64,000 nt of DNA from the sequence record PQ666539. One strand, given 5' to 3'. Below are positions 47,183-52,298 of this stretch, piece by piece. Source of the stretch: Shigella phage sb1. The position numbers and the translations under genes were made by a program. The notes beneath the pieces are model-generated. The model had not been told where the DNA came from. It worked only from the letters and a program-made list of their open reading frames with translations, and ran no database searches. Each line of letters begins with the position of its first letter. The first letter of the stretch is position 1.

Positions 47183-47773
47183 ATGCTCTTTACATTTTTT
47201 GATCCGATTGAATATGCGGCCAAAACGGTGAATAAAAACGCGCCGACTATTCCTATGACAGATATTTTTAGAAACTATAAAGACTATTTCAAACGTGCTC
47301 TTGCGGGATACCGCTTACGTACTTATTATATTAAAGGTTCACCGCGCCCGGAAGAATTAGCAAATGCTATATATGGAAATCCGCAGCTGTATTGGGTTTT
47401 ATTGATGTGTAATGATAATTATGATCCGTATTATGGATGGATTACTTCGCAAGAAGCTGCTTATCAAGCATCTATACAAAAATACAAAAACGTAGGTGGA
47501 GACCAAATAGTATATCATGTGAATGAGAATGGTGAAAAATTTTATAATTTAATATCATACGATGATAATCCATATGTTTGGTATGACAAAGGCGATAAAG
47601 CTAGAAAATATCCTCAATATGAAGGAGCACTTGCTGCAGTCTATACGTATGAAGCTGCTGTTCTTGAAAATGAAAAACTTCGTCAAATAAAAATAATAGC
47701 AAAATCAGACATCAATTCATTTATGAACGACCTTATACGTATAATGGAGAAATCTTATGGAAATGATAAGTAA
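47183..47773 (+). CDS. 53: Baseplate wedge protein gp53 (196 aa)
   Basis: ORF track; 196 aa as T4 gp53; precedes gene 5. Confidence 0.85.
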   Translation: MLFTFFDPIEYAAKTVNKNAPTIPMTDIFRNYKDYFKRALAGYRLRTYYIKGSPRPEELANAIYGNPQLYWVLLMCNDNYDPYYGWITSQEAAYQASIQKYKNVGGDQIVYHVNENGEKFYNLISYDDNPYVWYDKGDKARKYPQYEGALAAVYTYEAAVLENEKLRQIKIIAKSDINSFMNDLIRIMEKSYGNDK

Positions 47774-49484
47774 TAACCTTAATTGGTTTGTTGGTGTTGT
47801 TGAAGATAGAATGTACCCATTAAAATTAGGTCGTGTTCGTGTTCGTGTGGTTGGTCTGCATCCACCTCAAAGAGCACAAGGCGATTTAATTGGTATTCCA
47901 ACTGATAAATTACCGTGGATGTCAGTTATTCAACCTATAACTTCTGCAGCAATGTCTGGAATTGGAGGCTCCGTTACTGGTCCGGTAGAAGGAACTAGAG
48001 TCTATGGTCATTTTTTGGACAAATGGAAAACTAACGGAATTGTCCTTGGCACGTATGGTGGAATAGTTCGCGAAAAACCTAATAGACTTGAAGGATTTTC
48101 TGATCCGACTGGACAGTATCCTAGACGTCTAGGAAATGATACTAACGTATTAAACCAAGGCGGAGAAGTAGGATATGATTCGTCTTCTAATATTATTCAA
48201 GATAGCAATCTAGACACTGCGATAAATCCTGATGATAGACCACTATCAGAGATTCCAACTGATGATAATCCAAATATGTCAATGGCTGAAATGCTTCGCC
48301 GCGATGAAGGATTAAGACTAAAAGTTTATTGGGATACTGAAGGATATCCGACAATTGGTATTGGTCATCTTATCATGAAGCAGCCAGTTCGTGATATGAC
48401 TCAAATTAATAAAGTTTTATCAAAACAAGTTGGTCGTGAAATTACCGGAAATCCGGGTTCTATTACAATGGAAGAAGCGGTAACTTTATTTGAATGTGAT
48501 TTGGCTGATGTGCAACGTGACATTAAATCACATTCTAAAGTTGGCCCAGTTTGGCAAGCAGTTAATCGTTCTCGTCAAATGGCATTAGAAAATATGGCAT
48601 TTCAGATGGGCGTTGGCGGTGTAGCTAAATTTAACACAATGTTAACTGCTATGTTAGCCGGAGATTGGGAAAAGGCATATAAAGCTGGTCGTGATTCATT
48701 GTGGTATCAACAAACAAAAGGCCGTGCATCTCGTGTTACCATGATTATTCTTACAGGTAATTTGGAATCATACGGTATTGAAGTGAAAACACCGTCTAGG
48801 TCTTTGTCAGCAATGGCTGCTACTGTAGCAAAGTCTTCTGATCCAGCTGATCCTCCTATTCCGAATGATTCGAGAATTTTATTTAAAGAACCTGTTTCTT
48901 CATATAAAGGTGAATATCCGTATGTTCACACGATGGAAACTGAAAGCGGTCATATTCAGGAATTTGATGATACCCCTGGGCAAGAACGATACAGATTAAT
49001 TCATCCGACTGGAACGTATGAGGAAGTATCACCGTCAGGAAGAAGAACAAGAAAAACTGTTGATAATTTGTATGATATAACAAATGCTGATGGTAATTTT
49101 TTGGTAGCCGGTGATAAAAAGACTAACGTCGGTGGGTCAGAAATTTATTACAACATGGATAATCGTCTCCACCAAATAGATGGAAGCAATACAATATTTG
49201 TACGTGGCGATTAAACTAAGACGGTTGAAGGTAATGGAACTATCTTAGTCAAAGGTAATGTTACTATTGTAGTTGAATGTAATGCTGACATTACAGTTAA
49301 AGGAGATGCTACCACTTTAGTTGAAGGAAACCAGACTAATACAGTAAATGGAAATCTTTCTTGGAAAGTTGCTGGGACAGTTGATTGGGACGTTGGTGGC
49401 GATTGGACGGAAAAAATGGCATCTATGAGCTCTATTTCATCTGGTCAATACACAATTGATGGATCGAGGATTGACATTGGCTAA
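47757..49484 (+). pseudogene. 5: Baseplate hub/tail lysozyme gp5, 575 codons with in-frame TAA at 49212..49214
   Basis: Track ORF 47757..49214 contains the lysozyme domain (DEGLRLKVYWDTEGYPTIGIGHL); same frame continues through beta-helix repeats to TAA at 49482..49484; total equals T4 gp5. Confidence 0.85.
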
Positions 49485-49494
49485 TATACTTCCA

Positions 49495-50013
49495 ATGAGC
49501 GCTGATTTAGGAGAATCCATGGAAGGTTCTTCTATCGACGTCACCTTTACCGCTCAATTAGAAAAAGGTGAAACGTTAGTATCTATAAATATAACTAGTT
49601 ACGAAGAAACTCCTGGAGTTTTAGTAGAAGAAAATCGTTTATATGGAACGTATGAATCTGTGTTTGGATTTGGAAATGATGCGCTGAAATATCGTTTAGA
49701 TAATGAATTTAAAACTGCTGCTTCATGGGAAGACCTTCCAACTGATTCTAATAACCAATTGTATTTATGGAAAGCTCCTCAGAACCTCCAGAAGACATTC
49801 ACTTACGAAGTAACATTAATATATGACTACCAAGAACAAAGTGAATCTGGAGGTTCTGGTAGTAATTCTAGGTCATCTTCTGATACCACTGAACCGACGA
49901 ATCCTCCAGCTCCAATAAGAAAAACTCTTGTTAAAAATTATACAAAAACTATAGTTGGAAATTGGAGTCGTTGGGCTAATAAATTGAGAAGCTACGTGTA
50001 TGAGAGGCAATAA
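49495..50013 (+). CDS. 5.1: gp5.1-like protein (~172 aa)
   Basis: Track ORF 49456..50013 trimmed to Met downstream of gp5 stop. Confidence 0.5.
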   Translation: MSADLGESMEGSSIDVTFTAQLEKGETLVSINITSYEETPGVLVEENRLYGTYESVFGFGNDALKYRLDNEFKTAASWEDLPTDSNNQLYLWKAPQNLQKTFTYEVTLIYDYQEQSESGGSGSNSRSSSDTTEPTNPPAPIRKTLVKNYTKTIVGNWSRWANKLRSYVYERQ

Positions 50014-50307
50014 ATGTCAGGATTAAGTTATGATAAGTGTGTTACTGCCGGCCATGAAGCATGGCCTCCAACAGTTGTGAATGCTACAAAAAGTAAAGTA
50101 TTCACTGGAGGAATTGCTGTTCTCGTAGCAGGCGATCCAATTACAGAACATACAGAAATTAAAAAGCCATATGAAACACATGGCGGAGTGACACAACCTA
50201 GAACTTCTAAGGTATATGTCACTGGAAAGAAAGCTGTTCAAATGGCTTATCCAATATCATGCGGTGATACAGTGGCTCAGGCATCATCTAAAGTATTCAT
50301 TAAATAG
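50014..50307 (+). CDS. 5.4: PAAR-repeat tail spike tip protein gp5.4 (97 aa)
   Basis: ORF track; 97 aa; position after gene 5. Confidence 0.7.
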
Positions 50308-50315
50308 GATTTAAA

Positions 50316-52298
50316 ATGGCAAATACCCCTGTAAATTATCAATTAACAAGAACAGCAAATGCTATTCCCGAGATATTCGTCGGGGGTACATTTGCTGAAA
50401 TAAAACAAAACCTCATTTAATGGCTTAATGGCCAAAATGAATTTTTGGATTATGATTTTGAAGGCTCAAGATTAAACGTTCTGTGTGACATTTTAGCTTA
50501 TAATACATTGTACATTCAGCAGTTTGGTAATGCTGCCTTGTATGAAAGCTTTATGCGTACTGCTAATTTACGTAGTTCAGTAGTTCAATCTGCACAAGAT
50601 AATGGATATTTACCTACTTCAAAATCAGCTGCTCAAACTGAAATTATGCTAAATTGTACAGATGCATTGAATAGAAATTACATTACTATTCCTCGCGGTA
50701 CTCGCTTTTTAGCATATGCAAAGGATACTTCCGTTAATCCTTACAACTTTGTATCTACCGAAGATGTTATTGCTATTCGTGATAAAAATAACCAATATTT
50801 TCCACGTTTAAAATTGGCCCAGGGACGTATAGTAAGAACTGAAATCATTTATGATAAATTAACACCTATTATCATTTATGACAAAAATATAGATAGAAAC
50901 CAAGTTAAACTATACGTTGATGTAGCAGAATGGATTAACTGGACAAGAAAGTCAATGGTTCATGCTGGTTCTACATCAACAATTTACTACATGCGTGAAA
51001 CTATTGATGGAAATACTGAGTTTTATTTTGGTGAAGGTGAGATTTCTGTTAATGCTGCAGAAGGAGCATTGACTTCTAATTATATTGGGGGTCTTAAACC
51101 TACCCAGAACTCTACGATTGTTATTGAGTACATCAGTACTAACGGTGCAGATGCGAATGGCGCAGTCGGATTTTCATATGCAGATACATTAACAAATATA
51201 ACTGTCATCAACATTAATGAAAATCCAAACGATGACCCAGATTTTGTTGGGGCAGATGGCGGCGGTGATCCAGAAGATATTGAACGTATTCGTGAATTGG
51301 GTACTATTAAACGCGAGACCCAGCAACGCTGCGTAACTGCTACTGACTATGATACATTCGTTTCAGAGAGATTTGGTTCTATTATTCAAGCAGTTAAGAC
51401 TTTCACTGATTCTACTAAACCTGGTTATGCATTTATTGCCGCTAAACCTAAATCAGGACTATATTTAACTACTGTACAGCGCGAAGATATTAAAAATTAT
51501 CTCAAAGACTATAATTTAGCTCCTATTACGCCATCAATTATTTCTCCTAATTACCTTTTTATTAAGACTAATTTAAAAGTCACATATGCTTTAAATAAGC
51601 TGCAAGAATCCGAACAGTGGCTCGAAGGTCAAATAATTGATAAAATTGATCGCTATTATACCGAAGATGTAGAAATTTTTAACTCATCTTTCGCTAAATC
51701 TAAGATGTTGACATATGTAGATGATGCAGATCATTCTATCATTGGTTCATCAGCGACAATTCAAATTGTTCGTGAAGTACAAAACTTCTATAAAACGCCT
51801 GAAGCAGGTATTAAATACAATAATCAAATAAAAGATCGTTCTATGGAATCTAATACGTTTTCATTTAATTCTGGACGAAAGGTTGTAAATCCTGATACTG
51901 GTTTAGAAGAAGATGTATTATATGACGTTCGCATAGTATCAACAGACCGAAATTCTAAAGGAATTGGTAAAGTTATTATTGGTCAATTTGCTTCTGGCGA
52001 TGTTACAGAAAATAAAAACATTCAACCATATTCAGGAAACGATTTTAACAAATTAGCAAATTCTGATGGACGCGACAAATACTATGTTATCGGTGAAATA
52101 AATTATCCAGCTGATATGATTTATTGGAATATCGCTAAAATTAATTTAACATCCGAAAAATTTGAAGTTCAGACCATTGAATTATATTCTGACCCAACCG
52201 ATGATGTTATCTTTACTCGCGATGGTTCACTGATTGTATTTGAAAATGACTTACGTCCACAATACTTAACTATCGATTTGGAGCCTATATCACAATGA
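50316..52298 (+). pseudogene. 6: Baseplate wedge protein gp6, 660 codons with in-frame TAA at 50418..50420
   Basis: ATG at 50316 gives MANTPVNYQLTRTANAIPEIFVGGTFAEIKQNLI-stop-WLNGQNEF then track ORF 50445..52298 in frame; total equals T4 gp6. Confidence 0.85.

Follow-up and report, generated by a model that had tools for sequence, protein, structure and literature searches.

Shigella phage sb1 (sequence record PQ666539) was analysed over a stretch of 64,000 nucleotides, hereafter the window, which is a segment of a Tequatrovirus (T4-like) genome spanning the regA/gene 62/gene 44 region through to gene 14. This work concerns two neighboring genes within it, the ortholog of gene 5, which encodes the baseplate hub with its tail lysozyme and cell-puncturing needle, and the ortholog of gene 6, which encodes a baseplate wedge protein, both of which are broken by an in-frame TAA codon (coordinates in Table 1). 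As relatives we used phage T4 (NC_000866, where genes 5 and 6 are T4p144 and T4p151) and the Escherichia phages Killian (OQ446694) and UGKSEcP2 (OV876900). The latter two are 98.9% identical in nucleotides to the region 47757-52298, and no phage record is closer. In all three relatives, genes 5 and 6 have the same lengths (575 and 660 codons) and the same Pfam domains as in the window, and the gene order annotated in Killian and UGKSEcP2, namely 53, 5, 5.1, 5.4 (PAAR), 6 and 7, is also the order found here. Between the two interrupted genes (49484-50316), 5.1 adjoins 5.4, the PAAR tip gene, as it does in Killian and UGKSEcP2, while segC and 5.3, which lie between 5.1 and 5.4 in T4, are absent from the window as they are from Killian.

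Both stops are evident in the frame translations, which read ...IFVRGD*TKTVEGNG... around the stop in gene 5 and ...EIKQNLI*WLNGQ... around that in gene 6 (the asterisk marks the stop), so that the two in-frame TAA codons of the original prediction, including the position of the latter at codon 35, are indeed present in the sequence. The identities that had been assigned to the two genes from the letters of the DNA agree with their Pfam domains, and the downstream frames are, as had been stated, intact and full length, both staying open and aligning colinearly with their counterparts in T4, Killian and UGKSEcP2. At both stop sites T4, Killian and UGKSEcP2 (3/3) carry the glutamate codon GAA, which means that each stop corresponds to one G>T change; this also answers the comparison with T4 gp5 and gp6 that had been proposed as a check.

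Read through its stop, gene 5 encodes one polypeptide of about 575 residues, broken at residue 486, that combines an N-terminal OB domain, a lysozyme domain and C-terminal beta-helix repeats (Pfam Gp5_OB at 3e-65, Phage_lysozyme, Gp5_C and Gp5_trimer_C). It is 98.8% identical in amino acids to gp5 of Killian and fully colinear with it, and it is likewise colinear with T4 gp5 over 575 codons. The original prediction had placed the interruption after the lysozyme domain and before the needle, which does not hold: the Pfam match to the lysozyme domain runs to about residue 310, and codon 486 falls far into the C-terminal part, just upstream of a Gp5_trimer_C match that covers residues 498-563, begins at profile position 40 and is followed by the Gp5_C repeats. 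Given this location deep in the needle region, a truncated gp5 would lose only the last 90 needle residues. No in-frame open reading frame of at least 30 amino acids was found downstream of the gene 5 stop. Five of the seven amino-acid changes in gp5 that are private to the window result from G>T/C>A substitutions (for example D20Y, V44L, M45I and G508C).

The gene 6 product is 98.3% identical in amino acids to its Killian ortholog, so that gp5 and gp6 of Killian both stand at about 98-99% identity to the window orthologs, and it is colinear with T4 gp6. Five gp6-specific Pfam families were matched with E-values of 1e-39 to 1e-51, which together comprise the helical domain, domain II and the C-terminal domains I-III of a protein of about 660 residues, and the gene lies upstream of the gene 7 ortholog, which begins at 52295. 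The first in-frame start past the stop is a TTG at 50445, from which an open reading frame of 617 amino acids extends. As in gp5, most of the private amino-acid changes (8 out of 10, for example A92S, G203V and P557Q) are due to G>T/C>A substitutions.

Neither stop allele was seen in any other sequence that we searched. For the 61-mer covering the gene 5 stop, none of 372 phage records carried the T, and the same was true of all 487 phage records for the gene 6 stop, the best match being 60/61 in either case. A 35-mer bearing the gene 5 stop was absent from IMG/VR, from JGI metagenome contigs and from GTDB genome contigs, while its GAA version was present in IMG/VR; the 35-mer bearing the gene 6 stop was also absent from IMG/VR. 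Nor was the truncated gp5 product of 485 amino acids found in the contig collection.

To place the two stops in the context of the whole window, all annotated Killian proteins were placed on it by tblastn, and 20 of the stops were then checked codon by codon. The screen returned 22 in-frame stop characters across approximately 20 conserved genes, as opposed to none in Killian, none in UGKSEcP2 and five in T4, where they were confined to three small variable open reading frames. The special status of genes 5 and 6 that the original prediction implied is thus not borne out. All 20 verified stops (16 TAA, 3 TGA and 1 TAG) arose from one G:C>T:A transversion each, and the sense codons behind them were GAA, TCA, TAC, GGA, TGC and TCG, coding for Glu, Ser, Tyr, Gly and Cys; at 12 of the 16 TAA sites the relatives carry GAA. 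The TAG in gene 3 and the TGA in vs show that the in-frame stops are not specific to TAA. The affected genes are early as well as late, lie on both strands and include the essential genes 46, nrdD, 57A, 3, 5, 6, 9 and 10.

Table 1. Positions of the gene 5 and gene 6 orthologs in the window, of their in-frame stops and of the in-frame stops verified in other genes.
Feature	Positions	Strand	Details
Gene 5 ortholog (baseplate hub / tail lysozyme / cell-puncturing needle)	47757-49484	+	575 codons, broken at codon 486
Stop in gene 5	49212-49214	+	TAA; codon 486/575; GAA (Glu486) in relatives; single G>T at 49212
Gene 6 ortholog (baseplate wedge)	50316-52298	+	660 codons, broken at codon 35
Stop in gene 6	50418-50420	+	TAA; codon 35/660; GAA (Glu35) in relatives; single G>T at 50418
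Stop in rpbA	3667-3669		TAA
Stop in gene 46	4676-4678		TAA
Stop in nrdH	11924-11926		TAA
Stop in nrdG	12917-12919		TAA
Stop in nrdD	13399-13401		TAA
Stop in nrdC.6-like gene	21188-21190		TAA
Stop in nrdC.7-like gene	21753-21755		TAA
Stop in nrdC.8-like gene	22294-22296		TAA
Stop in hypothetical gene	25911-25913		TAA
Stop in vs ortholog	31250-31252	-	TGA; GGA in relatives
Stop in denV	35072-35074		TGA
Stop in e.5	38039-38041		TGA
Stop in e.6	38353-38355		TAA
Stop in e.8	39753-39755		TAA
Stop in gene 57A	44247-44249		TAA
Stop in gene 3 ortholog	45504-45506	-	TAG; TCG in relatives
Stop in gene 9 ortholog	57107-57109	+	TAA; GAA in relatives
Stop in gene 10 ortholog	58189-58191	+	TAA; TCA in relatives; C>A

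We then counted private substitutions over the 57,630 positions that could be aligned in the window, Killian, UGKSEcP2 and T4. The window carries 753 of them; G>T (107) and C>A (116) together account for 223, or 30%, whereas the identical test gave shares of only 7% for Killian, 9% for UGKSEcP2 and 8% for T4. This excess amounts to about 190 events, or approximately 1.3% of the G:C sites, and is equal on both strands. In the 87 mapped coding sequences, the private G>T/C>A changes comprise 15 synonymous, 147 missense and 17 nonsense changes (8%, 82% and 9.5%) and fall on codon positions 1, 2 and 3 in the ratio 85/60/34. Random G>T/C>A changes of the ancestral sequence would yield 6% synonymous, 81% missense and 12.9% nonsense changes, with codon-position shares of 0.47/0.35/0.18, and the observed effects are indistinguishable from this expectation (chi-square, p=0.19). 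The number of stops follows the same rule: with the natural background subtracted, 17.6 were expected in the mapped coding sequences and 17 were observed, and the window's own G>T/C>A rate predicts 0.95 stops for gene 5 and 1.02 for gene 6. The private transitions, on the other hand, are 75% synonymous (227 synonymous and 74 non-synonymous), the pattern that genuine evolutionary divergence would leave. Unselected G>T/C>A changes next to selected transitions indicate that the window is a normal T4-like sequence onto which an unselected layer has been superimposed.

The G>T/C>A events occur across the whole window, in early genes as much as in late ones. With respect to their sequence context, a G directly 5' of the mutated C was enriched (67 observed versus 43 expected, p=7e-4), while none of the other positions from -6 to +6 deviated; the absence of an extended motif speaks against k-mer-specific base-calling errors. 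For the same reason, and in view of the few indels, we rejected a nanopore motif error caused by glucosyl-hydroxymethylcytosine, and a literature search on T4, hydroxymethylcytosine and nanopore sequencing found nothing directly applicable. A chimeric assembly, which a block at 24-28 kb seemingly devoid of events had suggested, was likewise discarded, as six events appeared in this block once closer outgroups were used. Within nrdD, a stretch of 42 bp (13758-13799) holds six private changes of the G>T/C>A type, which might have come in together as a small recombinant patch and not as independent events.

Changes of the G:C>T:A type are the classic signature of unrepaired 8-oxoguanine (8-oxoG). 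Oxidative C>A/G>T artefacts have been documented in library preparation, where they are found at low allele fractions (below 20%) and prefer CCG>CAG (Costello et al. 2013, Nucleic Acids Res 41:e67, PMC3616734). What the window shares with this artefact (PMC3616734) is the C>A/G>T class, the excess being specific to it (30% versus 7-9% in the controls), the absence of any tie to gene function, and the presence of the changes on either strand of the finished sequence. It differs in that the changes stand in the consensus and that their context bias is limited to the 5'-G at the mutated C; indeed, no preference for CCG>CAG was observed, the rate at CGG (1.09%) being near average. Because of this different context preference, we rejected full identity with the 8-oxoG shearing artefact of the literature, and we therefore name the cause by its class only, as an error or damage process that produces G:C>T:A changes free of selection.

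Besides substitutions, the window carries several private indels. The gene 12 ortholog (59783-61326) has lost a single C at 60276, which shifts the frame of this short-tail-fibre gene, and other indels of 1 bp that are private to the window are found at 23824 (nrdC.10-like), 24451 (nrdC.11-like), 34389 (downstream part, denV region), 41502 and 62825, together with a private 2-bp insertion at 62070. The ortholog of gene 1 (deoxynucleoside monophosphate kinase; 44462-45172) shows a private in-frame deletion of 12 bp at 44861 relative to Killian, UGKSEcP2 and T4. The fibritin (wac) ortholog at 61342-62796 shares only about 81% amino-acid identity with Killian, compared with 98-99% for the flanking genes, and is a mosaic, divergent segment. 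Homing-endonuclease genes also vary: segB, which lies inside the transfer RNA (tRNA) clusters of T4 and Killian, has no match in the window, and several other Killian genes of this kind are without counterpart as well (L003, 8177-8800 and 16496-17317; L001, 13204-13812).

Stops in essential late structural genes with intact frames downstream are also what stop-reassigned phages display, and we therefore considered whether TAA might be reassigned in this phage, for example to glutamate, or be subject to programmed readthrough. The fact that 12 of the 16 in-frame TAA codons replace GAA would seem to favor such recoding, yet this predominance is the neutral expectation for G>T mutation acting on AT-rich codon usage, and other in-frame TAA codons replace Ser (TCA) and Tyr (TAC). 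None of the marks of a reassigned stop was found in the window, neither a codon no longer used as a terminator, nor a cognate suppressor tRNA, nor a single stop type standing for a consistent residue. TAA remains the main true terminator, closing 54 of the 90 conserved gene ends (29 end in TGA and 7 in TAG) and gene 5 itself. The tRNA cluster at 41561-42388, the counterpart of the single annotated cluster of T4, contains ten genes (Arg, Asn, Tyr, Met, Thr, Ser, Pro, Gly, Leu and Gln; T4 has eight), all with ordinary sense anticodons and none with a suppressor anticodon (tta, cta or tca). Unlike stop-reassigned phages, moreover, the window has in-frame stops of all three types, in early genes too, accompanied by random missense changes that arose from the same kind of mutation, and none of these stops is conserved in any relative. 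Taken together, these findings contradict recoding, which we regard as the least credible of the explanations. Scarcely better is the idea of a laboratory conditional-lethal (ochre) mutant with multiple lesions, or of a phage dependent on a suppressor host or tRNA, in which the TAA codons of genes 5 and 6 would be read through. T4 genetics was built on nonsense mutants in these very baseplate genes, and the stops in genes 5 and 6 both replace Glu, as several other TAA codons replace GAA. A conditional-lethal strain, however, would combine one or a few nonsense mutations with a wild-type, selected background, and what we found instead are 20 stops of three types replacing five different amino acids, 147 random missense changes that bear no sign of selection, and frameshifts. 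In addition, the ordinary anticodons of all ten tRNAs offer no suppressor, and the backbone is not that of laboratory T4, the nearest phage being Killian (98.9%), with T4 differing at far more sites. Such a mutant, ochre or amber, is accordingly contradicted by the data and very improbable.

The window is, in our judgement, very likely an ordinary Tequatrovirus segment with a near-random, unselected G:C>T:A layer on top, most probably of technical origin, in which the TAA codons of genes 5 and 6 have no function. This layer accounts for the GAA>TAA changes in genes 5 and 6 as well as for the 18 further stops and the 147 missense changes, and the other interrupted genes noted in the window probably share this cause. 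Judged from the features of the sequence, the changes most likely stem from sample preparation, sequencing or assembly rather than from a replicating phage; candidate sources may be G>T miscalls or 8-oxoguanine-type DNA damage that entered a consensus with little support, or corruption of the sequence in some other way. Several points weigh against this interpretation. The technical origin is deduced from the consensus rather than demonstrated directly from reads, and the known oxidative artefact is of low fraction and prefers CCG>CAG, while the window lacks an enrichment at CGG. A change of the consensus at about 1% of the G:C sites would call for very low coverage or unusually severe damage, the small number of indels is unlike a typical raw long-read error profile, and the density of events is somewhat uneven (p=0.007), which is partly owing to poor outgroups. 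A related but unlikely explanation is that the substitutions are real and belong to one DNA molecule or to a non-viable sub-population, the stops being true nonsense codons in a dead genome. Heavy oxidative mutagenesis, or replication deficient in 8-oxoG repair (mutM/mutY-like), could have generated such a molecule, which would then have been sequenced from a single or few templates without selection. The G:C>T:A spectrum and the G 5' of the mutated C fit unrepaired 8-oxoguanine, and the absence of selection suits a molecule that never replicated as well as it suits an artefact; indeed, the features of the sequence do not tell the two apart. Still, a genome with about 1.3% of its G:C pairs mutated, 20 nonsense and 147 missense changes and frameshifts in essential genes could not be propagated, and assemblies normally show the majority of a propagated stock. 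Slightly less likely again is the notion that the phage DNA itself contains the changes, having been oxidatively hypermutated, for instance through propagation or storage with strong 8-oxoG stress or lacking repair, and caught before selection, so that the stops in genes 5 and 6 would be lesions of a defective particle. The evidence does not point to the viable truncated baseplate architecture at which the original prediction hinted but instead assigns the stops to an unselected layer of G:C>T:A errors that runs through the whole window, and the actual phage almost certainly has Glu codons at these two sites and produces gp5 and gp6 at full length.

The finding is therefore first of all a quality flag. 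With an erroneous G:C>T:A change about every 280 bases, or about 190 over the window, the error layer breaks approximately 20 genes and alters approximately 150 amino acids, so that gene calls, protein comparisons and inferences on pseudogenes or recoding drawn from sequence record PQ666539 would mislead. It implies no new biology for the baseplate, for translation termination or for the genetic code. Should the changes be confirmed in the reads, the sequence would stand as a case of a phage genome with an extremely high load of oxidative mutations, a finding of modest interest.

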